Shown here in pieces: positions 25,559 to 38,465 of a stretch of DNA of 64,000 bases. This stretch comes from Escherichia coli (GTDB taxonomy: Bacteria; Pseudomonadota; Gammaproteobacteria; Enterobacterales; Enterobacteriaceae), in the NCBI RefSeq assembly GCF_003334765.1, contig NZ_QOWT01000008.1; one strand, given 5' to 3'. Position numbers and translations under genes: made by a program. Position 1 is the first letter of the stretch; every line of letters begins with the position of its first letter. Under the pieces are notes generated by a model that saw only the letters and a list, made by a program, of their open reading frames with translations, ran no database searches and was not told the DNA's origin.

Positions 25559-27838
25559 ATGGATGACCAGTTAAAACAAAGTGCACTTGATTTCCATGAA
25601 TTTCCAGTTCCAGGGAAAATCCAGGTTTCTCCAACCAAGCCTCTGGCAACACAGCGCGATCTGGCGCTGGCCTACTCACCAGGCGTTGCCGCACCTTGTC
25701 TTGAAATCGAAAAAGACCCGTTAAAAGCCTACAAATATACCGCCCGCGGTAACCTGGTGGCGGTGATCTCTAACGGTACGGCGGTGCTGGGGTTAGGCAA
25801 CATTGGCGCGCTGGCAGGCAAACCGGTGATGGAAGGCAAGGGCGTTCTGTTTAAGAAATTCGCCGGGATTGATGTATTTGACATTGAAGTTGACGAACTC
25901 GACCCGGACAAATTTATTGAAGTTGTCGCCGCGCTCGAACCAACCTTCGGCGGCATCAACCTCGAAGACATTAAAGCGCCAGAATGTTTCTATATTGAAC
26001 AGAAACTGCGCGAGCGGATGAATATTCCGGTATTCCACGACGATCAGCACGGCACGGCAATTATCAGCACTGCCGCCATCCTCAACGGCTTGCGCGTGGT
26101 GGAGAAAAACATCTCCGACGTGCGGATGGTGGTTTCCGGCGCGGGTGCCGCAGCAATCGCCTGTATGAACCTGCTGGTAGCGCTGGGTCTGCAAAAACAT
26201 AACATCGTGGTTTGCGATTCAAAAGGCGTTATCTATCAGGGCCGTGAGCCAAACATGGCGGAAACCAAAGCCGCATATGCGGTGGTGGATGACGGCAAAC
26301 GTACCCTCGATGATGTGATTGAAGGCGCGGATATTTTCCTGGGCTGTTCCGGCCCGAAAGTGCTGACCCAGGAAATGGTGAAGAAAATGGCTCGTGCGCC
26401 AATGATCCTGGCGCTGGCGAACCCGGAACCGGAAATTCTGCCGCCGCTGGCGAAAGAAGTGCGTCCGGATGCCATCATTTGCACCGGTCGTTCTGACTAT
26501 CCGAACCAGGTGAACAACGTCCTGTGCTTCCCGTTCATCTTCCGTGGCGCGCTGGACGTTGGCGCAACCGCCATCAACGAAGAGATGAAACTGGCGGCGG
26601 TACGTGCGATTGCAGAACTCGCCCATGCGGAACAGAGCGAAGTGGTGGCTTCAGCGTATGGCGATCAGGATCTGAGCTTTGGTCCGGAATACATCATTCC
26701 AAAACCGTTTGATCCGCGCTTGATCGTTAAGATCGCTCCTGCGGTCGCTAAAGCCGCGATGGAGTCGGGCGTGGCGACTCGTCCGATTGCTGATTTCGAC
26801 GTCTACATCGACAAGCTGACTGAGTTCGTTTACAAAACCAACCTGTTTATGAAGCCGATTTTCTCCCAGGCTCGCAAAGCGCCGAAGCGCGTTGTTCTGC
26901 CGGAAGGGGAAGAGGCGCGCGTTCTGCATGCCACTCAGGAACTGGTAACGCTGGGACTGGCGAAACCGATCCTTATCGGTCGTCCGAACGTGATCGAAAT
27001 GCGCATTCAGAAACTGGGCTTGCAGATCAAAGCGGGCGTTGATTTTGAGATCGTCAATAACGAATCCGATCCGCGCTTTAAAGAGTACTGGACCGAATAC
27101 TTCCAGATCATGAAGCGTCGCGGCGTCACTCAGGAACAGGCGCAGCGGGCGCTGATCAGTAACCCGACAGTGATCGGCGCGATCATGGTTCAGCGTGGGG
27201 AAGCCGATGCAATGATTTGCGGTACGGTGGGTGATTATCATGAACATTTTAGCGTGGTGAAAAATGTCTTTGGTTATCGCGATGGCGTTCACACCGCAGG
27301 TGCCATGAACGCGCTGCTGCTGCCGAGTGGTAACACCTTTATTGCCGATACATATGTTAATGATGAACCGGATGCAGAAGAGCTGGCGGAGATCACCTTG
27401 ATGGCGGCAGAAACTGTCCGTCGTTTTGGTATTGAGCCGCGCGTTGCTTTGTTGTCGCACTCCAACTTTGGTTCTTCTGACTGCCCGTCGTCGAGCAAAA
27501 TGCGTCAGGCGCTGGAACTGGTCAGGGAACGTGCACCAGAACTGATGATTGATGGTGAAATGCACGGCGATGCAGCGCTGGTGGAAGCGATTCGCAACGA
27601 CCGTATGCCGGACAGCTCTTTGAAAGGTTCCGCCAATATTCTGGTGATGCCGAACATGGAAGCTGCCCGCATTAGTTACAACTTACTGCGTGTTTCCAGC
27701 TCGGAAGGTGTGACTGTCGGCCCGGTGCTGATGGGTGTGGCGAAACCGGTTCACGTGTTAACGCCGATCGCATCGGTGCGTCGTATCGTCAACATGGTGG
27801 CGCTGGCCGTGGTAGAAGCGCAAACCCAACCGCTGTAA
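25559..27838 (+). CDS. maeB: NADP-dependent malic enzyme (malic enzyme fused to PTA-like domain)
   Basis: 759-aa ORF; N-terminal malic enzyme domain plus C-terminal phosphotransacetylase-like domain; recognised MaeB. Confidence 0.9.
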
Positions 27839-27880
27839 TTTTTTTAACTCTCACGCTTACCCTGAATATTCAGGGTAAGC

Positions 27881-28129
27881 AGTTTAGCTGCAATATATTA
27901 GTAAAGCTTATTACTGAGTTTGCGAATAATAAAAAAAAGCAGTCTATATAATATCTCGATATTATTTTATTTATATTCATGCGTTGCATATGAAAGTTTA
28001 TGCACCACAGCGAATATCTCTCCATTCTTAGTGATCTACCTCACCTTTTAAACGCGCTTGCCGAATTTTGTTATTTACTCTGACGAAAAATTGTCACGAT
28101 ACACGAAAGTTTTTCACAGGCGGCGACTC
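27881..28129 (+). promoter_or_regulatory. AT-rich eut operon promoter region
   Basis: About 250 bp AT-rich non-coding stretch immediately upstream of eutS; expected location of the main eut promoter; no motif mapped with confidence. Confidence 0.35.
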
Positions 28130-28465
28130 ATGGATAAAGAACGCATCATTCAGGAATTTGTGCCCGGCAAACAGGTCACACTGGCGCATCTCATCGCGCA
28201 TCCCGGTGAGGAACTGGCGAAGAAAATCGGCGTTCCGGATGCGGGCGCAATTGGCATTATGACGCTAACTCCCGGCGAAACGGCGATGATCGCCGGTGAT
28301 TTAGCGCTGAAAGCCGCTGATGTGCATATCGGTTTTCTCGACCGATTCAGCGGTGCATTGGTGATTTATGGCTCGGTGGGCGCAGTAGAAGAAGCGTTAT
28401 CACAAACCGTCAGCGGTTTAGGTCGCTTATTAAATTATACGCTTTGTGAAATGACCAAAAGTTAA
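28130..28465 (+). CDS. eutS: Ethanolamine utilization microcompartment shell protein EutS
   Basis: 111 codons from ATG 28130 ([21 protein letters not shown]...); BMC-domain shell protein; first gene of eut operon. Confidence 0.85.
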
Positions 28466-28477
28466 TACGAGGCATTC

Positions 28478-28957
28478 ATGAAACGAATTGCGTTTGTGGG
28501 TAGCGTCGGGGCAGGAAAAACAACGTTATTTAATGCGTTGCAGGGGAATTATACCCTCGCCAGAAAAACACAGGCCGTGGAATTTAATGATAAGGGCGAT
28601 ATTGATACGCCGGGTGAATATTTTAACCATCCCCGCTGGTATCACGCCTTAATTACCACGCTACAGGATGTAGACATGCTGATCTATGTCCATGGCGCAA
28701 ATGACCCGGAAAGTCGGTTGCCTGCCGGGTTGCTGGATATTGGCGTCAGCAAACGGCAAATCGCCGTCATCAGTAAAACGGACATGCCAGATGCTGACGT
28801 CGCCGCAACGCGAAAGTTATTGCTTGAGACGGGCTTCGAAGAGCCGATTTTCGAGCTAAACAGCCACGACCCGCAAAGCGTGCAGCAACTGGTGGATTAT
28901 CTGGCATCTCTCACCAAACAGGAGGAAGCAGGTGAAAAAACTCATCACAGCGAATGA
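28478..28957 (+). CDS. eutP: Ethanolamine utilization protein EutP (P-loop GTPase-like)
   Basis: 159-aa ORF with Walker A GSVGAGKTT. Confidence 0.85.
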   Translation: MKRIAFVGSVGAGKTTLFNALQGNYTLARKTQAVEFNDKGDIDTPGEYFNHPRWYHALITTLQDVDMLIYVHGANDPESRLPAGLLDIGVSKRQIAVISKTDMPDADVAATRKLLLETGFEEPIFELNSHDPQSVQQLVDYLASLTKQEEAGEKTHHSE

Positions 28958-29633
28958 TATTCGTGAAGCACACGCGCGCGGCGAACAGGCAATGTCCGTG
29001 GTTCTGCGCGCCAGCATTATTACCCCGGAAGCCCGTGAAGTGGCGGATCTACTGGGTTTTACCATCACCGAATGTGATGAATCGATCCCGGTAACGGCGT
29101 CCGTGCCCGCCAGCGTGCCAGCCGACAAAACCGAAAGCCAGCGCATCCGCGAAACCATCATTGCCCAGCTGCCGGAAGGCCAGTTTACCGAAAGCCTGGT
29201 CGCACAGCTGATGGAAAAAGTGATGAAGGAAAAACAGTCGCTGGAGCAGGGCGCAATGCAGCCGAGCTTCAAATCGGTGACCGGCAAAGGCGGCATCAAA
29301 GTGATTGATGGCAGTAGCGTCAAGTTTGGTCGTTTCGACGGCGCAGAGCCGCATTGCGTGGGCTTGACTGATCTTGTGACCGGAGACGACGGCAGCAGCA
29401 TGGCCGCCGGTTTTATGCAGTGGGAGAACGCATTCTTCCCGTGGACCCTGAACTACGACGAAATCGACATGGTGCTGGAAGGGGAGCTGCATGTTCGCCA
29501 CGAAGGCCAAACCATGATCGCCAAAGCAGGCGACGTGATGTTTATCCCGAAAGGCTCCAGCATCGAATTTGGTACGACATCCAGCGTGAAATTCCTGTAT
29601 GTCGCCTGGCCGGCTAACTGGCAATCCCTATGA
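28932..29633 (+). CDS. eutQ: Ethanolamine utilization protein EutQ (cupin fold)
   Basis: 233-aa ORF starting at GTG 28932 (GGAGG RBS), overlapping the eutP 3' end by 26 nt. Confidence 0.85.
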   Translation: MKKLITANDIREAHARGEQAMSVVLRASIITPEAREVADLLGFTITECDESIPVTASVPASVPADKTESQRIRETIIAQLPEGQFTESLVAQLMEKVMKEKQSLEQGAMQPSFKSVTGKGGIKVIDGSSVKFGRFDGAEPHCVGLTDLVTGDDGSSMAAGFMQWENAFFPWTLNYDEIDMVLEGELHVRHEGQTMIAKAGDVMFIPKGSSIEFGTTSSVKFLYVAWPANWQSL

Positions 29634-30433
29634 AAGATTTCATCACCGAAGCATGGCTAAGAGCGAACCATACGCTCAGCGAAGGCGCAGAGATCCATCT
29701 CCCTGCGGACAGTCGCCTGACGCCCTCTGCCCGGGAGTTGCTGGAAAGCCGCCATCTGCGCATCAAGTTTATTGACGAGCAGGGCCGCCTGTTTGTTGAC
29801 GATGAACAGCAGCAGCCGCAGCCCGTTCATGGGCTGACCAGTAGCGATGAACATCCGCAGGCGTGCTGCGAACTGTGTCGCCAGCCGGTGGCAAAAAAGC
29901 CGGATACGCTGACTCACCTGTCGGCGGAAAAAATGGTCGCCAAAAGCGATCCGCGTCTGGGTTTTCGCGCGGTTCTCGACAGCACCATTGCGCTGGCAGT
30001 GTGGCTGCAAATTGAACTGGCGGAACCGTGGCAGCCGTGGCTGGCGGATATCCGTTCGCGTCTTGGCAACATTATGCGCGCCGATGCGCTGGGGGAACCG
30101 CTGGGCTGCCAGGCGATTGTCGGGCTTTCTGACGAAGATCTGCATCGGCTTTCTCATCAGCCGCTGCGCTATCTCGACCACGATCATCTGGTGCCGGAAG
30201 CCAGCCACGGGCGCGATGCTGCGTTGCTCAATCTGCTACGCACCAAAGTGCGGGAAACCGAAACCGTAGCGGCGCAGGTCTTTATCACCCGCAGCTTTGA
30301 AGTATTACGCCCGGACATTTTGCAGGCGCTGAACCGCCTTTCGAGCACGGTCTACGTGATGATGATCCTGAGCGTAACGAAGCAGCCGCTAACGGTGAAG
30401 CAGATCCAACAACGACTGGGGGAAACGCAATGA
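29630..30433 (+). CDS. eutT: Corrinoid (cobalamin) adenosyltransferase EutT
   Basis: 267-aa ORF; ATG overlaps eutQ stop (ATGA); recognised EutT. Confidence 0.85.
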
Positions 30434-31446
30434 TTATTGAACGTTGTCGTGAACTGGCGTTGCGAGCGCCCGCCAGAGTGGTTTTTCCGGATGCGTTAGA
30501 CCAACGTGTGCTGAAAGCCGCGCAATATTTACATCAACAAGGTCTGGCAACGCCCATTCTGGTCGCCAATCCGTTTGAACTTCGTCAGTTTGCGCTCAGT
30601 CACGGCGTGGCGATGGACGGGCTACAGGTGATTGATCCGCATGGCAACCTCGCAATGCGGGAAGAATTTGCTCATCGCTGGCTGGCCCGCGCGGGCGAAA
30701 AAACGCCGCCGGATGCGCTGGAAAAACTTACCGACCCTCTGATGTTCGCCGCAGCAATGGTCAGCGCCGGTAAAGCGGATGTCTGTATCGCGGGCAACCT
30801 CTCTTCCACGGCAAATGTGCTGCGTGCCGGATTACGCATTATCGGCTTGCAGCCAGGCTGTAAAACGCTCTCTTCCATTTTCCTGATGTTGCCACAGTAC
30901 AGCGGCCCGGCGTTGGGCTTTGCCGATTGCAGCGTGGTGCCACAGCCGACGGCGGCGCAGCTGGCGGATATCGCGCTTGCCAGTGCCGAAACCTGGCGCG
31001 CCATCACCGGAGAAGAGCCGCGCGTGGCGATGCTGTCGTTTTCCAGCAATGGTAGCGCCCGTCACCCCTGTGTTGCTAACGTCCAGCAGGCGACAGAAAT
31101 CGTCCGTGAGCGCGCACCAAAGCTGGTGGTGGATGGCGAGTTACAGTTTGACGCCGCCTTCGTGCCGGAAGTGGCGGCGCAAAAAGCGCCTGCCAGCCCG
31201 CTACAGGGCAAGGCCAATGTGATGGTTTTTCCGTCGCTGGAAGCCGGAAATATTGGTTACAAAATCGCACAACGACTCGGCGGATATCGTGCCGTCGGGC
31301 CACTGATACAAGGACTTGCCGCGCCGATGCACGATCTCTCTCGTGGTTGTAGCGTGCAGGAAATTATCGAGCTGGCGCTGGTGGCAGCTGTGCCGCGTCA
31401 GACAGAAGTGAACCGCGAAAGCAGTTTACAAACACTGGTTGAATGA
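30430..31446 (+). CDS. eutD: Phosphotransacetylase EutD
   Basis: 338-aa PTA-family ORF; ATG overlaps eutT stop (ATGA). Confidence 0.9.
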
Positions 31447-31484
31447 ACGGTCCCGTTCTGGACCCTGATAAAGAGGAAAGCACA

Positions 31485-31778
31485 ATGGAAGCATTAGGAA
31501 TGATCGAAACCCGGGGCCTGGTTGCACTGATTGAGGCTTCTGACGCGATGGTGAAAGCTGCGCGCGTCAAGCTGGTTGGTGTTAAGCAGATTGGCGGCGG
31601 CCTGTGTACTGCCATGGTTCGTGGTGATGTTGCAGCCTGTAAAGCCGCGACCGATGCAGGTGCCGCAGCGGCACAGCGTATCGGCGAGCTGGTATCTGTA
31701 CACGTTATCCCGCGTCCGCACGGCGACCTGGAAGAAGTCTTCCCGATCGGCCTGAAAGGCGATAGCAGCAACCTGTAA
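31485..31778 (+). CDS. eutM: Microcompartment major shell protein EutM (BMC-H)
   Basis: 97 codons from ATG 31485 ([28 protein letters not shown]...); canonical BMC hexamer domain. Confidence 0.9.
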
Positions 31779-31884
31779 TCACCCTGTGTGACGTCGATTC
31801 GGGCGTCACGCTCTCTCCTTTTTCATTTTACCTTCTGCGGAGGGTAGGGGGAGCTTTTACCTGAAATACGCCACGGAGGCGGGT

Positions 31885-32172
31885 ATGAAACTGGCAGTCG
31901 TCACTGGACAAATTGTTTGTACCGTACGCCATCACGGACTGGCGCATGACAAATTGCTGATGGTGGAAATGATTGATCCACAAGGTAATCCTGACGGGCA
32001 ATGCGCCGTCGCCATCGACAATATTGGCGCGGGAACCGGGGAGTGGGTGTTACTGGTGAGTGGCAGTTCCGCCCGCCAGGCGCATAAAAGCGAAACGTCA
32101 CCGGTCGATCTGTGCGTGATTGGCATTGTCGATGAGGTGGTGTCTGGCGGTCAGGTAATTTTCCACAAATAA
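31885..32172 (+). CDS. eutN: Microcompartment vertex protein EutN (BMC-V)
   Basis: 95-aa ORF (MKLAVVTGQIVCTVRHHGL...), EutN/CcmL family; GGAGG RBS. Confidence 0.9.
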   Translation: MKLAVVTGQIVCTVRHHGLAHDKLLMVEMIDPQGNPDGQCAVAIDNIGAGTGEWVLLVSGSSARQAHKSETSPVDLCVIGIVDEVVSGGQVIFHK

Positions 32173-32183
32173 GGCAGAACATC

Positions 32184-33587
32184 ATGAATCAACAGGATAT
32201 TGAACAGGTGGTGAAAGCGGTACTGCTGAAAATGCAAAGCAGTGACACGCCGTCCGCCGCCGTTCATGAGATGGGCGTTTTCGCGTCCCTGGATGACGCC
32301 GTTGCGGCAGCCAAAGTCGCCCAGCAAGGGTTAAAAAGCGTGGCAATGCGCCAGTTAGCCATTGCTGCCATTCGTGAAGCAGGCGAAAAACACGCCAGAG
32401 ATTTAGCGGAACTTGCCGTCAGTGAAACCGGCATGGGGCGCGTTGAAGATAAATTTGCAAAAAACGTCGCTCAGGCGCGCGGCACACCAGGCGTTGAGTG
32501 CCTCTCTCCGCAAGTGCTGACTGGCGACAACGGCCTGACCCTAATTGAAAACGCACCCTGGGGCGTGGTGGCTTCGGTGACGCCTTCCACTAACCCGGCG
32601 GCAACCGTAATTAACAACGCCATCAGCCTGATTGCCGCGGGCAACAGCGTCATTTTTGCCCCGCATCCGGCGGCGAAAAAAGTCTCCCAGCGGGCGATTA
32701 CGCTGCTCAACCAGGCGATTGTTGCCGCAGGTGGGCCGGAAAACTTACTGGTTACTGTGGCAAATCCGGATATCGAAACCGCGCAACGCTTGTTCAAGTT
32801 TCCGGGTATCGGCCTGCTGGTGGTAACCGGCGGCGAAGCGGTAGTAGAAGCGGCGCGTAAACACACCAATAAACGTCTGATTGCCGCAGGCGCTGGCAAC
32901 CCGCCGGTAGTGGTGGATGAAACCGCCGACCTCGCCCGTGCCGCTCAGTCCATCGTCAAAGGCGCTTCTTTCGATAACAACATCATTTGTGCCGACGAAA
33001 AGGTACTGATTGTTGTTGATAGCGTAGCCGATGAACTGATGCGTCTGATGGAAGGCCAGCACGCGGTGAAACTGACCGCAGAACAGGCGCAGCAGCTGCA
33101 ACCGGTGTTGCTGAAAAATATCGACGAGCGCGGAAAAGGCACCGTCAGCCGTGACTGGGTTGGTCGCGACGCAGGCAAAATCGCGGCGGCAATCGGCCTT
33201 AAAGTTCCGCAAGAAACGCGCCTGCTGTTTGTGGAAACCACCGCAGAACATCCGTTTGCCGTGACTGAACTGATGATGCCGGTGTTGCCCGTCGTGCGCG
33301 TCGCCAACGTGGCGGATGCCATTGCGCTAGCGGTGAAACTGGAAGGCGGTTGCCACCACACGGCGGCAATGCACTCGCGCAACATCGAAAACATGAACCA
33401 GATGGCGAATGCTATTGATACCAGCATTTTCGTTAAGAACGGACCGTGCATTGCCGGGCTGGGGCTGGGCGGGGAAGGCTGGACCACCATGACCATCACC
33501 ACGCCAACCGGTGAAGGGGTAACCAGCGCGCGTACGTTTGTCCGTCTGCGTCGCTGTGTATTAGTCGATGCGTTTCGCATTGTTTAA
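32184..33587 (+). CDS. eutE: CoA-acylating acetaldehyde dehydrogenase EutE
   Basis: 467-aa aldehyde dehydrogenase-family ORF with N-terminal encapsulation-peptide-like region. Confidence 0.9.
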   Translation: MNQQDIEQVVKAVLLKMQSSDTPSAAVHEMGVFASLDDAVAAAKVAQQGLKSVAMRQLAIAAIREAGEKHARDLAELAVSETGMGRVEDKFAKNVAQARGTPGVECLSPQVLTGDNGLTLIENAPWGVVASVTPSTNPAATVINNAISLIAAGNSVIFAPHPAAKKVSQRAITLLNQAIVAAGGPENLLVTVANPDIETAQRLFKFPGIGLLVVTGGEAVVEAARKHTNKRLIAAGAGNPPVVVDETADLARAAQSIVKGASFDNNIICADEKVLIVVDSVADELMRLMEGQHAVKLTAEQAQQLQPVLLKNIDERGKGTVSRDWVGRDAGKIAAAIGLKVPQETRLLFVETTAEHPFAVTELMMPVLPVVRVANVADAIALAVKLEGGCHHTAAMHSRNIENMNQMANAIDTSIFVKNGPCIAGLGLGGEGWTTMTITTPTGEGVTSARTFVRLRRCVLVDAFRIV

Positions 33588-33597
33588 GGAGTAACAG

Positions 33598-34434
33598 ATG
33601 GCGCACGACGAACAATGGCTCACCCCACGTCTGCAAACGGCGGCAACGCTGTGTAACCAGACGCCCGCCGCGACGGAATCTCCGCTGTGGCTGGGGGTGG
33701 ATCTGGGCACCTGCGATGTGGTGTCGATGGTTGTCGACCGCGACGGTCAGCCAGTGGCGGTATGCCTCGACTGGGCCGATGTGGTTCGCGACGGCATCGT
33801 CTGGGATTTCTTCGGCGCTGTCACCATTGTTCGTCGCCATCTCGACACGCTCGAGCAGCAATTCGGTCGTCGTTTTAGCCATGCGGCGACTTCATTTCCT
33901 CCAGGTACGGACCCGCGTATTTCCATCAACGTGCTGGAATCTGCCGGACTGGAAGTGAGCCATGTGCTGGATGAGCCAACCGCAGTTGCGGATCTGCTGC
34001 AACTGGACAACGCCGGTGTAGTGGATATCGGCGGCGGCACTACCGGCATTGCCATCGTGAAAAAGGGCAAGGTGACGTACTCGGCGGATGAAGCCACCGG
34101 CGGACATCACATCTCTCTGACTCTCGCCGGAAATCGCCGTATTTCGCTGGAAGAGGCGGAGCAGTACAAGCGCGGTCACGGTGAAGAGATTTGGCCTGCG
34201 GTGAAACCGGTGTACGAAAAAATGGCGGACATTGTCGCCCGGCATATTGAAGGGCAGGGCATTACTGATTTATGGCTGGCGGGCGGCTCTTGTATGCAAC
34301 CGGGCGTGGCGGAACTGTTTCGCAAACAATTCCCGGCGTTACAGGTGCATTTACCGCAGCACAGTTTGTTTATGACCCCGCTGGCGATCGCCAGTAGTGG
34401 GCGAGAGAAAGCGGAGGGGCTATATGCAAAATGA
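33598..34434 (+). CDS. eutJ: Ethanolamine utilization chaperone-like protein EutJ (actin/Hsp70 fold)
   Basis: 278-aa ORF with DxG-type ATPase motifs (VDLGT, DIGGGTTG). Confidence 0.85.
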   Translation: MAHDEQWLTPRLQTAATLCNQTPAATESPLWLGVDLGTCDVVSMVVDRDGQPVAVCLDWADVVRDGIVWDFFGAVTIVRRHLDTLEQQFGRRFSHAATSFPPGTDPRISINVLESAGLEVSHVLDEPTAVADLLQLDNAGVVDIGGGTTGIAIVKKGKVTYSADEATGGHHISLTLAGNRRISLEEAEQYKRGHGEEIWPAVKPVYEKMADIVARHIEGQGITDLWLAGGSCMQPGVAELFRKQFPALQVHLPQHSLFMTPLAIASSGREKAEGLYAK

Positions 34435-35611
34435 ATTGCAGACCGCGCTCTTTCAGGCGTTCGATACCCTGAATCTGCAACGGGTAAAAACATTTAGCGT
34501 TCCACCGGTGACGCTTTGCGGTCCGGGCTCGGTGAGCAGTTGCGGACAGCAAGCGCAAACGCGTGGGCTGAAACATCTGTTCGTGATGGCAGACAGCTTT
34601 TTGCATCAGGCAGGGATGACCGCCGGGCTGACGCGTAGCCTGACCGTTAAAGGTATCGCCATGACGCTCTGGCCATGTCCGGTGGGCGAACCGTGCATTA
34701 CCGACGTGTGTGCAGCCGTGGCGCAGTTGCGTGAGTCAGGCTGTGATGGGGTGATCGCGTTTGGCGGCGGCTCGGTGCTGGATGCGGCGAAAGCCGTGAC
34801 GTTGCTGGTGACGAACCCGGATAGCACGCTGGCAGAGATGTCAGAAACCAGCGTTCTGCAACCGCGCTTGCCGCTGATTGCCATTCCAACTACCGCCGGA
34901 ACCGGCTCTGAAACCACCAATGTAACGGTGATTATCGACGCGGTGAGCGGGCGCAAGCAGGTGTTAGCCCATGCCTCGCTGATGCCGGATGTGGCGATCC
35001 TCGACGCCGCATTGACCGAAGGTGTGCCGTCGCATGTCACGGCGATGACCGGCATTGATGCGTTAACCCATGCCATTGAAGCATACAGCGCCCTGAACGC
35101 TACACCGTTTACCGACAGTCTGGCGATTGGTGCCATTGCGATGATTGGCAAATCGCTGCCGAAAGCGGTGGGCTACGGTCACGACCTTGCCGCGCGCGAG
35201 AGCATGTTGCTGGCTTCATGTATGGCGGGAATGGCGTTTTCCAGTGCGGGTCTTGGGTTGTGCCACGCGATGGCGCATCAGCCGGGCGCGGCGCTGCATA
35301 TTCCGCACGGTCTCGCGAACGCCATGTTGCTGCCAACGGTGATGGAATTTAACCGGATGGTTTGTCGTGAACGCTTTAGTCAGATTGGTCGGGCACTGCG
35401 AACTAAAAAATCCGACGATCGTGACGCTATTAACGCGGTAAGTGAGCTGATTGCGGAAGTTGGGATTGGTAAACGACTGGGCGATGTTGGTGCGACATCT
35501 GCGCATTACGGCGCATGGGCGCAGGCCGCGCTGGAAGATATTTGTCTGCGCAGTAACCCGCGTACCGCCAGCCTGGAGCAGATTGTCGGCCTGTACGCAG
35601 CGGCGCAATAA
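34424..35611 (+). CDS. eutG: Iron-containing alcohol dehydrogenase EutG
   Basis: 395 codons from ATG 34424 (MQNELQTALFQAF...), overlapping the eutJ 3' end by 11 nt; Fe-ADH family. Confidence 0.85.
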   Translation: MQNELQTALFQAFDTLNLQRVKTFSVPPVTLCGPGSVSSCGQQAQTRGLKHLFVMADSFLHQAGMTAGLTRSLTVKGIAMTLWPCPVGEPCITDVCAAVAQLRESGCDGVIAFGGGSVLDAAKAVTLLVTNPDSTLAEMSETSVLQPRLPLIAIPTTAGTGSETTNVTVIIDAVSGRKQVLAHASLMPDVAILDAALTEGVPSHVTAMTGIDALTHAIEAYSALNATPFTDSLAIGAIAMIGKSLPKAVGYGHDLAARESMLLASCMAGMAFSSAGLGLCHAMAHQPGAALHIPHGLANAMLLPTVMEFNRMVCRERFSQIGRALRTKKSDDRDAINAVSELIAEVGIGKRLGDVGATSAHYGAWAQAALEDICLRSNPRTASLEQIVGLYAAAQ

Positions 35612-35612
35612 A

Positions 35613-35797
<185 letters not shown>

Positions 35798-35827
35798 ATA
35801 AATAACAACTAACAGGGAGTAAAGGCG

Positions 35828-37054
35828 ATGGGAATTAACGAAATCATCATGTACATCATGATGTTCTTTATGCTGATAGCTGCCGTAGACAGGATCCTGT
35901 CGCAGTTCGGCGGTTCTGCTCGTTTCCTCGGTAAGTTCGGTAAAAGTATCGAAGGATCAGGCGGTCAGTTCGAAGAAGGCTTTATGGCAATGGGCGCACT
36001 GGGCCTGGCGATGGTCGGTATGACCGCGCTGGCACCGGTACTGGCTCACGTTCTCGGGCCGGTAATTATTCCGGTTTACGAAATGCTCGGCGCTAACCCA
36101 TCGATGTTCGCCGGAACACTGCTGGCGTGCGATATGGGCGGCTTCTTCCTCGCCAAAGAGCTGGCGGGCGGCGACGTAGCCGCGTGGCTATACTCTGGGT
36201 TAATTCTCGGGTCGATGATGGGGCCAACGATTGTGTTTTCCATTCCGGTGGCGCTCGGCATTATCGAACCTTCTGACCGTCGTTATCTGGCGCTCGGCGT
36301 GCTGGCGGGCATTGTGACCATTCCGATTGGTTGTATCGCTGGTGGTCTGGTTGCTATGTACTCCGGTGTGCAGATCAACGGCCAGCCGGTGGAATTCACT
36401 TTCGCCCTGATCCTGATGAACATGATCCCGGTGATCATTGTTGCGATTCTGGTGGCGCTGGGGCTGAAATTCATCCCGGAAAAAATGATCAACGGCTTCC
36501 AGATCTTCGCCAAATTCCTCGTTGCATTGATCACCCTCGGTCTTGCCGCTGCGGTAGTGAAATTCCTGCTTGGCTGGGAACTGATCCCCGGTCTGGATCC
36601 TATCTTTATGGCCCCTGGCGATAAACCCGGTGAGGTGATGCGCGCCATTGAAGTTATCGGTTCTATCTCCTGCGTTCTGTTAGGGGCGTATCCGATGGTG
36701 CTGCTGCTGACTCGCTGGTTTGAAAAACCGCTGATGAGCGTCGGTAAAGTACTGAATATGAACAACATCGCGGCAGCCGGCATGGTGGCAACGCTTGCCA
36801 ACAACATCCCGATGTTCGGCATGATGAAGCAGATGGATACCCGCGGCAAAGTCATCAACTGCGCCTTCGCCGTTTCCGCTGCTTTCGCCCTGGGCGACCA
36901 CTTAGGCTTCGCCGCTGCCAACATGAACGCCATGATCTTCCCGATGATTGTCGGCAAGTTGATCGGCGGCGTAACGGCGATTGGCGTGGCGATGATGCTG
37001 GTGCCAAAAGAAGACGCGACCGCGACTAAAACCGAAGCGGAGGCACAATCGTGA
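35828..37054 (+). CDS. eutH: Ethanolamine permease EutH
   Basis: 408-aa polytopic membrane ORF; recognised EutH. Confidence 0.9.
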   Translation: MGINEIIMYIMMFFMLIAAVDRILSQFGGSARFLGKFGKSIEGSGGQFEEGFMAMGALGLAMVGMTALAPVLAHVLGPVIIPVYEMLGANPSMFAGTLLACDMGGFFLAKELAGGDVAAWLYSGLILGSMMGPTIVFSIPVALGIIEPSDRRYLALGVLAGIVTIPIGCIAGGLVAMYSGVQINGQPVEFTFALILMNMIPVIIVAILVALGLKFIPEKMINGFQIFAKFLVALITLGLAAAVVKFLLGWELIPGLDPIFMAPGDKPGEVMRAIEVIGSISCVLLGAYPMVLLLTRWFEKPLMSVGKVLNMNNIAAAGMVATLANNIPMFGMMKQMDTRGKVINCAFAVSAAFALGDHLGFAAANMNAMIFPMIVGKLIGGVTAIGVAMMLVPKEDATATKTEAEAQS

Positions 37055-38454
37055 ACACTCGCCAGCTATTGAGCGTCGGTATCGATATCGGCACCACCAC
37101 CACCCAGGTGATTTTCTCCCGGCTGGAGCTGGTTAACCGTGCGGCGGTGTCGCAGGTGCCGCGCTACGAATTCATTAAACGCGAAATTAGCTGGCAAAGT
37201 CCGGTGTTCTTTACCCCTGTCGATAAACAGGGCGGTTTAAAAGAAGCGGAACTGAAAACCTTAATACTCGAGCAATATCATGCTGCGGGTATTGAGCCGG
37301 AAAGCGTTGATTCTGGTGCCATCATCATCACCGGTGAAAGCGCGAAAACCCGCAATGCTCGCCCGGCGGTGATGGCGCTCTCTCAGTCGCTGGGCGATTT
37401 TGTCGTTGCCAGCGCCGGGCCGCACCTCGAATCCGTGATCGCCGGTCACGGAGCCGGGGCACAAACCCTTTCTGAACAACGGCTGTGTCGGGTACTGAAT
37501 ATCGACATCGGCGGTGGCACCGCGAACTACGCCCTGTTCGATGCCGGAAAAATCAGCGGCACTGCCTGCCTCAACGTCGGTGGTCGCCTGCTGGAAACCG
37601 ACAGCCACGGGCGCGTGGTTTACGCTCATAAACCGGGGCAGATGATTGTGGATGAGTGCTTCGGTGCAGGCACCGACGCCCGTTCGCTGACCGGCGCGCA
37701 GCTGGTGCAGGTGACCCGGCGGATGGCAGAACTGATTGTCGAAGTGATTGACGGAACGCTCTCACCGCTCGCGCAGGCATTGATGCAAACCGGTTTGCTG
37801 CCCGCAGGTGTTACGCCCGAAATCATTACGCTTTCTGGCGGCGTGGGCGAATGTTATCGCCACCAGCCCGCCGACCCGTTCTGTTTTGCCGATATTGGCC
37901 CGCTGCTGGCAACTGCGCTGCATGACCATCCGCGCCTGCGTGAGATGAACGTACAGTTTCCGGCGCAAACCGTGCGCGCCACGGTGATTGGCGCGGGCGC
38001 GCATGCCCTTTCGCTCTCTGGCAGCACAATCTGGCTTGAGGGCGTACAACTGCCGCTGCGCAATTTGCCGGTGGCGATCCCGATTGATGAAACGGATCTG
38101 GTGGGGGCCTGGCAACAGGCGCTGATTCAGCTGGATCTTGATCCCAAAACTGACGCGTACGTGCTGGCGCTTCCCGCCTCGCTGCCTGTGCGTTACGCCG
38201 CGGTACTGACGGTCATCAACGCGTTGGTCGATTTCGTCGCGCGTTTTCCGAATCCGCATCCCCTGCTGGTGGTGGCCGGGCAGGACTTTGGTAAAGCTCT
38301 GGGCATGTTGTTGCGCCCACAGCTACAACAACTCCCGTTGGCAGTCATTGACGAAGTGATTGTCCGCGCGGGGGACTATATCGACATTGGTACGCCTCTT
38401 TTTGGCGGATCGGTTGTGCCGGTGACGGTGAAATCACTCGCATTTCCTTCCTGA
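37051..38454 (+). CDS. eutA: Ethanolamine ammonia-lyase reactivase EutA
   Basis: 467-aa ORF starting at GTG 37051 overlapping eutH stop (GTGA); recognised EutA. Confidence 0.9.
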   Translation: MNTRQLLSVGIDIGTTTTQVIFSRLELVNRAAVSQVPRYEFIKREISWQSPVFFTPVDKQGGLKEAELKTLILEQYHAAGIEPESVDSGAIIITGESAKTRNARPAVMALSQSLGDFVVASAGPHLESVIAGHGAGAQTLSEQRLCRVLNIDIGGGTANYALFDAGKISGTACLNVGGRLLETDSHGRVVYAHKPGQMIVDECFGAGTDARSLTGAQLVQVTRRMAELIVEVIDGTLSPLAQALMQTGLLPAGVTPEIITLSGGVGECYRHQPADPFCFADIGPLLATALHDHPRLREMNVQFPAQTVRATVIGAGAHALSLSGSTIWLEGVQLPLRNLPVAIPIDETDLVGAWQQALIQLDLDPKTDAYVLALPASLPVRYAAVLTVINALVDFVARFPNPHPLLVVAGQDFGKALGMLLRPQLQQLPLAVIDEVIVRAGDYIDIGTPLFGGSVVPVTVKSLAFPS

Positions 38455-38465
38455 GGGAACGACTT

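Follow-up and report, generated by a model that had tools for sequence, protein, structure and literature searches.

Hairpins between the genes of an operon are known in several forms. Leaky intrinsic terminators occur inside operons at rplL-rpoB and after papA, the intercistronic stem-loop of pufBA-pufLMX in Rhodobacter is a protective 3' hairpin, and the ANTAR target consensus, to which the EutV sites of Firmicute eut operons belong, consists of paired hexaloops with A at position 1 and G at position 4. Repetitive extragenic palindromic (REP) sequences are documented stabilisers of upstream mRNA and leaky terminators. Within operons, REPs and bacterial interspersed mosaic elements (BIMEs) were reported to block 3' exonucleases and to attenuate read-through; for REP325 attenuation of transcription, partly via Rho, was reported. 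In tandem gene pairs containing REPs the median log2 ratio of upstream to downstream expression was 0.96 as compared with -0.09. Protective 3' hairpins were shown to be a general cause of differential decay within operons (Dar and Sorek 2018), and the same authors linked low ribosome density with faster segment decay. Here we describe the spacer between the shell protein genes eutM and eutN in a 64,000-nucleotide stretch of Escherichia coli DNA (hereafter the window), and compare it with these systems.

Microcompartment shells contain thousands of hexamer subunits and only about 60 pentamer subunits, all encoded in one operon. To our knowledge, how the hexamer to pentamer ratio is set has rarely been addressed for the eut system. 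An earlier note, made from the sequence of the window alone, had remarked on a hairpin and a T-rich stretch in the eutM-eutN spacer and suggested a partial terminator or stabiliser that raises EutM relative to downstream products. The spacer was found to contain two tandem hairpins that are conserved in position in several genera and replaced by REPs in others, and published data show a steep fall in expression across them. The reading that we favour, and hold tentatively, is that the spacer acts in cis as an RNA within the polycistronic eut message, forming a decay barrier between the two cistrons and a weak attenuator, and that it also keeps the translation of eutN uncoupled and low.

Structure of the eutM-eutN spacer

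The gene eutM (31485-31778, + strand) encodes the major hexameric shell protein of 97 amino acids and ends with TAA at 31776-31778. The next gene, eutN (31885-32172, + strand), encodes the pentameric vertex protein of 95 amino acids and starts with ATG at 31885. Both genes are supported by the list of open reading frames (ORFs) and by RefSeq annotation, for eutM that of an identical E. coli sequence. They are separated by an intercistronic spacer of 106 nt (31779-31884, + strand). When this spacer was folded as RNA, a check proposed in the earlier note, the hairpin that it had pointed out was obtained together with a second one. The inverted repeat GTGACG (31788-31793) and CGTCAC (31804-31809) lies where it had been placed, and is in fact longer, extending to ten base pairs. 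This hairpin, HP1 (31786-31811, + strand; 10-bp stem GUGUGACGUC / GGGCGUCACG C and the 6-nt loop GAUUCG), was recovered by RNAfold and by a terminator scan. It begins 7 nt past the eutM stop codon, has a predicted free energy of -16.2 kcal/mol, and six of its ten pairs are G-C.

The second hairpin, HP2 (31813-31853, + strand; -16.8 kcal/mol), is composite: an outer stem of CUCUCCU (31813-31819) with AGGGGAG (31847-31853) and an inner stem of UACCUUC (31829-31835) with GAGGGUA (31840-31846), closed by the loop UGCG, are arranged around a 9-nt internal loop. Its lower stem is rich in G.U pairs. The T-rich stretch CTCTCTCCTTTTTCATTTT (31811-31829) and the ribosome-binding sequence GGAGG (31875-31879), 5 nt ahead of the eutN ATG, are both present as the earlier note had stated, but the tract forms the 5' arm of HP2 and is not a free tail. 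HP1 and HP2 together span nucleotides 7-75 past the eutM stop codon. The complete spacer was predicted to fold with -43.0 kcal/mol, compared with -32.3 +/- 3.4 kcal/mol for dinucleotide shuffles (z = -3.17; 2 of 200 shuffles did as well), and both hairpins were also predicted when 60 nt of flanking sequence was added on each side. HP1 is among the most stable 0.12% of 30-nt windows of the + strand; the 64 kb contain 23 sites of at least its stability, several or many of them REPs or terminator-like hairpins.

Expression of eutM, eutN and their neighbours

In E. coli W3110 grown on ethanolamine plus B12, the relative protein levels were EutQ 100, EutM 96, EutL 39, EutB 37, EutE 27, EutC 24, EutD 10 and EutN 1 (PMC11334477). 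The EutM:EutN ratio is therefore approximately 100:1 (96 vs 1; PMC11334477), a figure whose denominator, obtained by intensity-based absolute quantification (iBAQ), is imprecise for a protein of 95 amino acids. In strain LF82 the mRNA values, in reads per kilobase per million mapped reads (RPKM), were eutT 83, eutD 357, eutM 177, eutN 62, eutE 149 and eutJ 147 in the presence of bile salts (induced), and eutT 13, eutD 108, eutM 55, eutN 5, eutE 14 and eutJ 13 in their absence (uninduced; PMC6379400). The step in abundance from eutM to eutN, whose absence would have spoken against the proposal of the earlier note, is present: in this single data set of per-gene values mRNA drops 3- to 11-fold (PMC6379400) before rising again at eutE, and EutM is raised relative to EutN both in protein (96 vs 1) and in RPKM (177 vs 62 and 55 vs 5). 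HP1 and HP2 are stable stem-loops directly 3' of the more abundant cistron, which is the arrangement seen with protective 3' stem-loops.

The mRNA and protein of eutN are below those of both neighbours, and in the induced operon most of the level is regained at eutE. Because eutE recovers (RPKM 149, protein 27), strong termination is ruled out as the cause of the 100:1 protein ratio. For the same reason the EutM:EutN ratio must be set mainly by an effect specific to eutN, namely weak translation, faster decay of the segment, or both. The eut operon is not mentioned by Dar and Sorek (2018), and our literature search found no paper describing the eutM-eutN spacer.

The gap in other species

A scan for EutN, using one genome per species, yielded 42 loci with both eutM and eutN. 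Every Enterobacteriaceae locus sampled had a eutM-eutN gap of 52-144 nt, and in a Pseudomonas and two Rhodocyclaceae the gap measured 131-211 nt; the eutN-eutE junction was always 10-15 nt. A hairpin of the HP1 type, with the core UGACGYC...GRCGUCA, was found in 24 of the loci, belonging to Escherichia, the Citrobacter freundii complex, three other Citrobacter species, Klebsiella spallanzanii, Buttiauxella, Entomohabitans and Yokenella. In 14 loci the gap was of a REP type, with two to four REP core motifs each as compared with none in the HP1 class and in the window. These were the loci of Salmonella, K. pneumoniae, K. oxytoca, K. michiganensis, K. grimontii, C. koseri, C. amalonaticus, C. 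sedlakii, Pseudocitrobacter and Pluralibacter, and three of the REP-type spacers gave sub-threshold hits with the Rfam family naRNA4. The first REP starts 6-13 nt past the eutM stop codon in most of these species and approximately 27 nt past it in C. koseri. The remaining four loci have gaps with unrelated GC-rich hairpins. All of the 14 orthologous spacers that were compared with their own shuffles folded better than these, with z values from -1.3 to -4.0.

Enterobacterial eutN (87-100% identity) was also encountered on tiny contigs of unrelated bacteria, namely Gemelliphila palaticanis (L018, 446 bp), Prolixibacteraceae (L032, 466 bp) and Caballeronia (L043, 269 bp). The Gemelliphila contig carries a REP spacer of the C. 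koseri type. These contigs most likely represent assembly contamination.

Conservation of the hairpins

A blastn search with 11-base words and an E-value limit of 10 showed that the spacer, which is unannotated, has a single location in each of 5408 of the 5426 complete E. coli genomes. When E. coli is compared with Citrobacter or K. spallanzanii, 81-86% of the aligned spacer positions are identical, while the four-fold degenerate sites of eutM and eutN are 54-72% identical in the same comparison. The most conserved part is the last 53 nt of the spacer (83-98% identical). This pattern indicates that the spacer hairpin is under purifying selection; conservation beyond the neutral expectation is also a property of protective 3' stem-loops.

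The main alignment consisted of 16 related sequences from three genera (Escherichia, Citrobacter and K. spallanzanii). Its consensus structure has 27 pairs with 98.8% of the cells paired, as opposed to 49-67% in slid registers. Compensatory double changes occur at three pairs, all of them in HP2; for example, CCUUC/GAGGG is changed to UUCUC/GAGAG or to GCCCUC/GAGGGC. A covariance model built from the 16 sequences hit the 64-kb window once. In Buttiauxella and Entomohabitans its hits covered the full length but were weak, and the REP-type species had none. HP1 itself is conserved in six genera, Escherichia, Citrobacter, Klebsiella (K. spallanzanii), Buttiauxella, Entomohabitans and Yokenella, where it starts 5-9 nt past the stop codon, has predicted stabilities of -13 to -19 kcal/mol and carries a loop of 4-23 nt. 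In this wider set one pair appears as U.G, C-G or U-A, and Yokenella shows a double change from G-C to A-U. A position that is fixed while the loop varies from 4 to 23 nt fits an RNA stem and not a protein operator. Among four E. coli or Escherichia variants, five of seven substitutions fall on unpaired positions and two break one pair each of the HP2 outer stem. As judged from these alignments, the support by covariation is real but modest, and the slow evolution, the fixed position and the replacement by other hairpins are the stronger arguments.

Two natural variants of the region were noted. Strain E. coli 90-1 carries an IS911 copy (L052, 2580-3850) just past HP2, inside the U run, at the equivalent of window position ~31857; in this natural mutant eutM and the hairpins are parted from the eutN leader. 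In the K. spallanzanii locus (L041, 1380-1500) the C-terminus of EutM (..DSSNL) resembles that of E. coli and the spacer contains HP1 and HP2, but EutN is Klebsiella-like. In the sister species K. oxytoca, K. michiganensis and K. grimontii, EutM has ..DSNI and the gap holds REPs, which points to a recombination breakpoint close to the spacer in K. spallanzanii.

The eutN leader

The leader UUUUACCUGAAAUA (31855-31868, + strand) starts with a run of four U located 1 nt past HP2 and continues into a near-invariant motif. Twelve of its 14 positions are invariant across the 16 aligned sequences, and the other two vary only in two Citrobacter R56-type sequences. The near-invariant stretch of the eutN leader can be written as UUUUACCUGAAAUA(C/U)GCCACGGAGGCGGGU, and UACCUGAA was found in Buttiauxella and Entomohabitans too. 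The leader contains GC↓UUU, in agreement with the relaxed consensus of RNase E sites, RN↓WUU.

A weak hairpin, HP3 (31858-31885, + strand; -6.6 kcal/mol), can form by pairing of UACC with GGUA and of CGCC with GGCG. In the E. coli prediction this hairpin takes in the Shine-Dalgarno (SD) sequence GGAGG (31875-31879) of eutN, part of which it pairs, together with the first base of the AUG, which is paired as well. All 16 sequences preserve the inner stem, and four of them have mismatches in the outer one. The predicted probability of the eutN SD region being unpaired is 0.09, the lowest among 12 eut genes. In 38 of 43 loci the initiation region of eutN was less accessible than the eutM one, and in 33 of 39 it was less so than the eutE one, although the loci counted are not independent. 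The nucleotides that pair with the eutN SD or AUG differ among the genera.

The spacer also contains internal repeats. TTTTACCT occurs as an exact direct repeat at 31826-31833 and 31855-31862, and CGGAGG..GGTA is present twice, at 31838-31847 and 31873-31885. Because of these two repeats the inner hairpin of HP2 resembles a tighter, compact duplicate of the hairpin at the eutN ribosome-binding site.

Candidate identities rejected

A dispersed repeat of the REP, ERIC or box C type was excluded by the single copy per genome in 5408 E. coli genomes. Neither the window spacer nor any HP1-type locus has a core match to the REP consensus palindrome (of the GCCGGATG...TTATCCGGC type). No match to the spacer was obtained with Rfam 15 up to E = 10 in 31740-31930, nor in a scan of 27000-37000. 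An internal promoter was discarded since no sigma-70-like site was found in the spacer on either strand; that eutN mRNA is lower than eutE mRNA also argues against it. A DNA operator for a protein (TGACG..CGTCA, or a CRP-like TGTGA) does not agree with a half-site spacing of 4-23 nt, and there is no CRP-type right half at N6.

Coding functions were considered as well. A small ORF on the + strand starts with GTG at 31788 (19 codons, found by eye), and two on the - strand lie at 31705-31809 (34 amino acids) and 31828-32001 (57 amino acids). All three were dismissed: neither frame nor length is conserved, since the loops differ between species by numbers of nucleotides that are not multiples of three, and in Citrobacter the reading frames stop early, with unrelated sequence. 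The AGGAG preceding the 34-residue ORF is nothing but the CU tract read on the opposite strand. An alternative long-range pairing between the 5' arm of HP1 and CGUCAC in codons 5-7 of eutN was also rejected, as this eutN sequence is equally conserved in REP-type species, which have no HP1. A terminator score of the d'Aubenton-Carafa type was dropped as uncalibrated, control hairpins in the window having scored negative too.

Other features of the eut operon

The window is a segment of the E. coli chromosome with the 17-gene eut operon on the + strand, and its bases 31443-32172 are 100% identical to many E. coli genomes. In the window eutA is joined directly to eutB (38432-38462); the operon is intact because the CPZ-55 prophage is not inserted between them. 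K-12 strains, for example NCM3722, carry this 6.8-kb prophage (intZ, yffL-yffS) at the eutA-eutB junction, and the window therefore does not derive from K-12.

Thirteen of the 16 operon junctions overlap or are not longer than 20 nt. The long ones are eutD-eutM (38 nt), eutM-eutN (106 nt), eutK-eutR (45 nt) and eutG-eutH (216 nt). The spacer therefore stands out by its length, as the earlier note had said, but the eutG-eutH gap, which was not mentioned there, is longer. This gap (35612-35827) is filled with REP/BIME copies. An Rfam naRNA4 match at 35666-35747 scores 71.8 bits, above the gathering score, and weaker copies adjoin it. In strain ESBL 15 this gap has a length of just 116 nt, so the REP copy number is variable among strains. 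In LF82 eutH mRNA exceeds eutG mRNA (514 vs 168 RPKM; PMC6379400), the reverse of the usual REP polarity.

Upstream of eutM, a small hairpin GGUCC-CGUUCU-GGACC (31449-31464, + strand) lies 2 nt past the eutD stop codon and 20 nt ahead of the eutM AUG. It is a nearly unchanged motif in Escherichia, Citrobacter, Salmonella, Klebsiella and Yokenella. A Rhodocyclaceae locus has a related hairpin, GGUC..GACC. Tentatively, the hairpin upstream of eutM could delimit a stable eutM segment on the 5' side. If translation of eutM began at an in-frame ATG at 31443, EutM would be 14 residues longer and its reading frame would overlap the eutD stop codon. The gene was listed with 335 bp in the LF82 study (PMC6379400), while the RefSeq start is 31485. 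In Citrobacter the stretch upstream of the eutM start (31443-31484) is non-coding, with in-frame stop codons.

Discussion

The reading that we favour builds on the two hairpins, their conservation and position, their substitution by REPs and the asymmetry in the published expression data; the decay-barrier and uncoupling steps are inferred from these. An endonucleolytic cut would occur downstream, plausibly in the single-stranded U-rich leader past HP2 or within the eutN segment, where translation is poor. HP1 and HP2, standing in tandem, would then stop 3'-to-5' exonucleases and protect the upstream (eutD-)eutM segment, and slight termination may occur at HP2 plus UUUU. The structured gap of 106 nt would at the same time part eutN from the heavily translated eutM and prevent translational coupling, and eutN would have to initiate alone, on its own partly base-paired ribosome-binding site. 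The net outcome would be much hexamer-forming EutM and very little pentamer-forming EutN. In other enterobacteria REPs in the same gap would do the same job.

Several observations weigh against this reading. HP1 lies only 7 nt past the stop codon and must be melted by every terminating ribosome. Covariation is modest, and the HP1 stem sequence is invariant in the main alignment. O157:H7 EDL933 and strain TUM13867 each have one mismatch in the HP2 outer stem, and strain 90-1 tolerates IS911 in the spacer. Only in Escherichia is the accessibility of the eutN SD markedly low; the other genera show a weak trend. REPs may have landed in the gap merely because it is a site tolerant of insertions, and the effects of REPs are reported to be context-dependent. 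The RNA-seq values derive from a single per-gene RPKM table (PMC6379400) with a scatter of 76 to 514 along the operon, and eutN is a short gene. A literature search found no transcript 3'-end data for eut under inducing conditions.

A different explanation would be a leaky Rho-independent terminator, or a partly Rho-dependent attenuator, stopping a fraction of the transcription rounds at HP1 plus the CU tract or at HP2 plus UUUU, with eutN and the genes beyond it transcribed less than eutS to eutM. HP1 was the best terminator-like site in 10 kb by consensus scan (10 pairs, six G-C), both hairpins are G+C-rich stem-loops (-16.2 and -16.8 kcal/mol), and the invariant UUUU 1 nt past HP2 could make a weak terminator there. 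In Buttiauxella HP1 is directly followed by CUUCUUUUA, and the 5' arm of HP2 is C-rich and G-poor like rut sites. REP325 offers a precedent of attenuation, partly through Rho, and in uninduced cells mRNA is 4-fold lower at eutE than at eutM (14 vs 55; PMC6379400). What HP1 lacks is a free, uninterrupted U tail within ~2 nt of the stem: its tail is UCUCUCCUUUUU, the first 8 nt past it being UCUCUCCU, and the U run begins 7 nt past HP1 in E. coli and 11 nt past it in Citrobacter and is missing in Yokenella. The CU tract is paired into HP2, whose own tail has only four U and whose lower stem is rich in G.U pairs. Nor are terminator-like sites enriched in the region (14 found vs 12.9 expected), and the REPs that replace the element have no U tracts. 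In induced cells eutE mRNA is 84% of eutM, and EutE, EutB and EutL protein amount to 27-39% of EutM; because these stay high, termination cannot explain a 100-fold EutM:EutN ratio. HP1 and HP2 are at best a weak terminator, and we doubt that termination is the main function of the spacer. The terminator part of the earlier note's suggestion is thereby reduced to weak termination, given that the U tract is paired and eutE recovers; its stabiliser part is plausible. Even less probable is a neutral origin, in which a tolerated non-coding gap collects hairpins and REPs and its conservation reflects recent ancestry or eutM-eutN recombination. The occupation of the gap by REPs, IS911 or unrelated GC-rich hairpins in different lineages, the E. 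coli-like eutM 3' end and spacer of K. spallanzanii, which suggest horizontal exchange, and the stem mismatches in two E. coli lineages would suit it. A neutral gap should not, however, diverge less than the four-fold degenerate sites of the same loci, keep the hairpin at a fixed distance from the stop codon in six genera while loop and pre-stem sequence vary, or preserve HP2 pairing by compensatory changes; moreover, other short junctions stay short, and eutM-eutN is long in every species sampled, beta-proteobacteria included.

Translation offers two further accounts. The spacer might be a governor of eutN translation, in which the gap ends coupling and the leader with HP3 and the inner hairpin of HP2 keep EutN low; UUUUACCU would pair with GGUA at the start codon, the HP2 inner hairpin would copy the ribosome-binding-site module UUUUACCU...CGGAGGGUA, and low eutN mRNA would be secondary to poor protection by ribosomes. 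The position of eutN below both neighbours (mRNA 62 vs 177 and 149, protein 1 vs 96 and 27) supports this, since only an effect specific to eutN explains it. The low accessibility of the eutN SD (0.09, lowest of 12 genes; below eutM in 38/43 loci and eutE in 33/39), the strong conservation of the last 53 nt (83-98%), the duplicated TTTTACCT and CGGAGG..GGTA, and the link of low ribosome density with faster decay (Dar and Sorek) point the same way. HP3 is weak, however (-6.6 kcal/mol, outer stem mismatched in 4/16), the partners of SD and AUG differ between genera, GGAGG at a spacing of 5 nt is itself a strong ribosome-binding site, and the iBAQ figure for EutN, a protein of 95 amino acids, is imprecise. 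This account also leaves unexplained why a stable hairpin stands just past the eutM stop codon in every genus and why REPs substitute for it, and we consider it unlikely to be the whole explanation. In the other account the hairpin, less than 15 nt past the stop codon, stalls the terminating ribosome and lowers EutM, a mechanism that Liang, Rudd and Deutscher reportedly proposed in 2015 for REPs near stop codons. The distances of HP1 (5-9 nt in all HP1-type species) and of the first REP (6-13 nt in most REP-type species) would fit. EutM is nevertheless one of the two most abundant Eut proteins (96, the top being 100), the opposite of what a brake predicts; the first REP of C. koseri is ~27 nt away, and a 10-bp stem is a small obstacle to the helicase activity of the ribosome. 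Such a brake is very improbable.

Beyond the preferred decay barrier with uncoupling of eutN, a bolder possibility, to which we give little credence at present, is that HP1, HP2 and the leader make up a cis-regulatory RNA of ~110 nt and three hairpins that is dedicated to the eut operons of enterobacteria and has not been described before. It would combine SD-like strands (GGAGGG, GGGGGAG) with anti-SD-like ones (CUCUCUCC, UACCUUC, UACCU). In concert with the hairpin at 31449-31464 it would delimit a stable eutM message and actively keep the translation of eutN low, perhaps by way of a factor that recognises the GGA-rich hairpins, and REPs would be an independently recruited substitute. If this were true, the RNA would set the hexamer-to-pentamer ratio of the microcompartment shell.

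The eutM-eutN spacer is a real, conserved and unannotated element. Differential expression by means of an intercistronic hairpin has been known for decades, and such fine-tuning of an operon will not surprise the specialist. A conserved post-transcriptional element at eutM-eutN that is interchangeable with REPs would be a concrete, mutable handle on shell stoichiometry. When Eut shells are engineered from cloned operon fragments, keeping or dropping the spacer may change the EutM:EutN ratio. The locus is also a tidy natural case of REPs and a unique hairpin in the same functional slot.

With respect to the systems described above, the eut spacer resembles the leaky operon terminators in that a hairpin rich in G+C and a U-rich sequence follow the gene whose product is the most abundant structural subunit; it differs in that the U tract of HP1 is interrupted, paired into HP2 and not conserved, and in that downstream expression recovers. 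Conserved hairpins bracket eutM on both sides, as is the case for the papA segment. The ANTAR/EutV sites of Firmicute eut operons are likewise two tandem hairpins in a non-coding eut gap, but the loops of the eutM-eutN spacer, GAUUCG and UGCG, are unfit for an ANTAR target. No eutV or eutW is annotated in the operon or its flanks and Rfam gave no hit, and this identity was rejected.

The protective 3' hairpins (Dar and Sorek 2018), such as that of galE, also are conserved stem-loops at the boundary between high and low abundance within one transcript, concern the subunit ratio of a protein assembly, and are conserved more than neutral sites; most of those found by Dar and Sorek are inside the downstream coding sequence, whereas the eut hairpins occupy a dedicated gap of 106 nt. 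From the REP/BIME elements of malE-malF, hisJ-hisQ and yjdMN (REP325) the E. coli element is distinguished by its single copy, by the lack of the GCC(G/T)GAT / ATC(C/A)GGC core, by a covariance model that misses the REP-type spacers, and by its conservation as an orthologous sequence across genera, which REPs do not show. The likeness to these elements consists in stable stem-loops in the gap after a more highly expressed upstream gene, and in other enterobacteria REPs are found in this very eutM-eutN gap.

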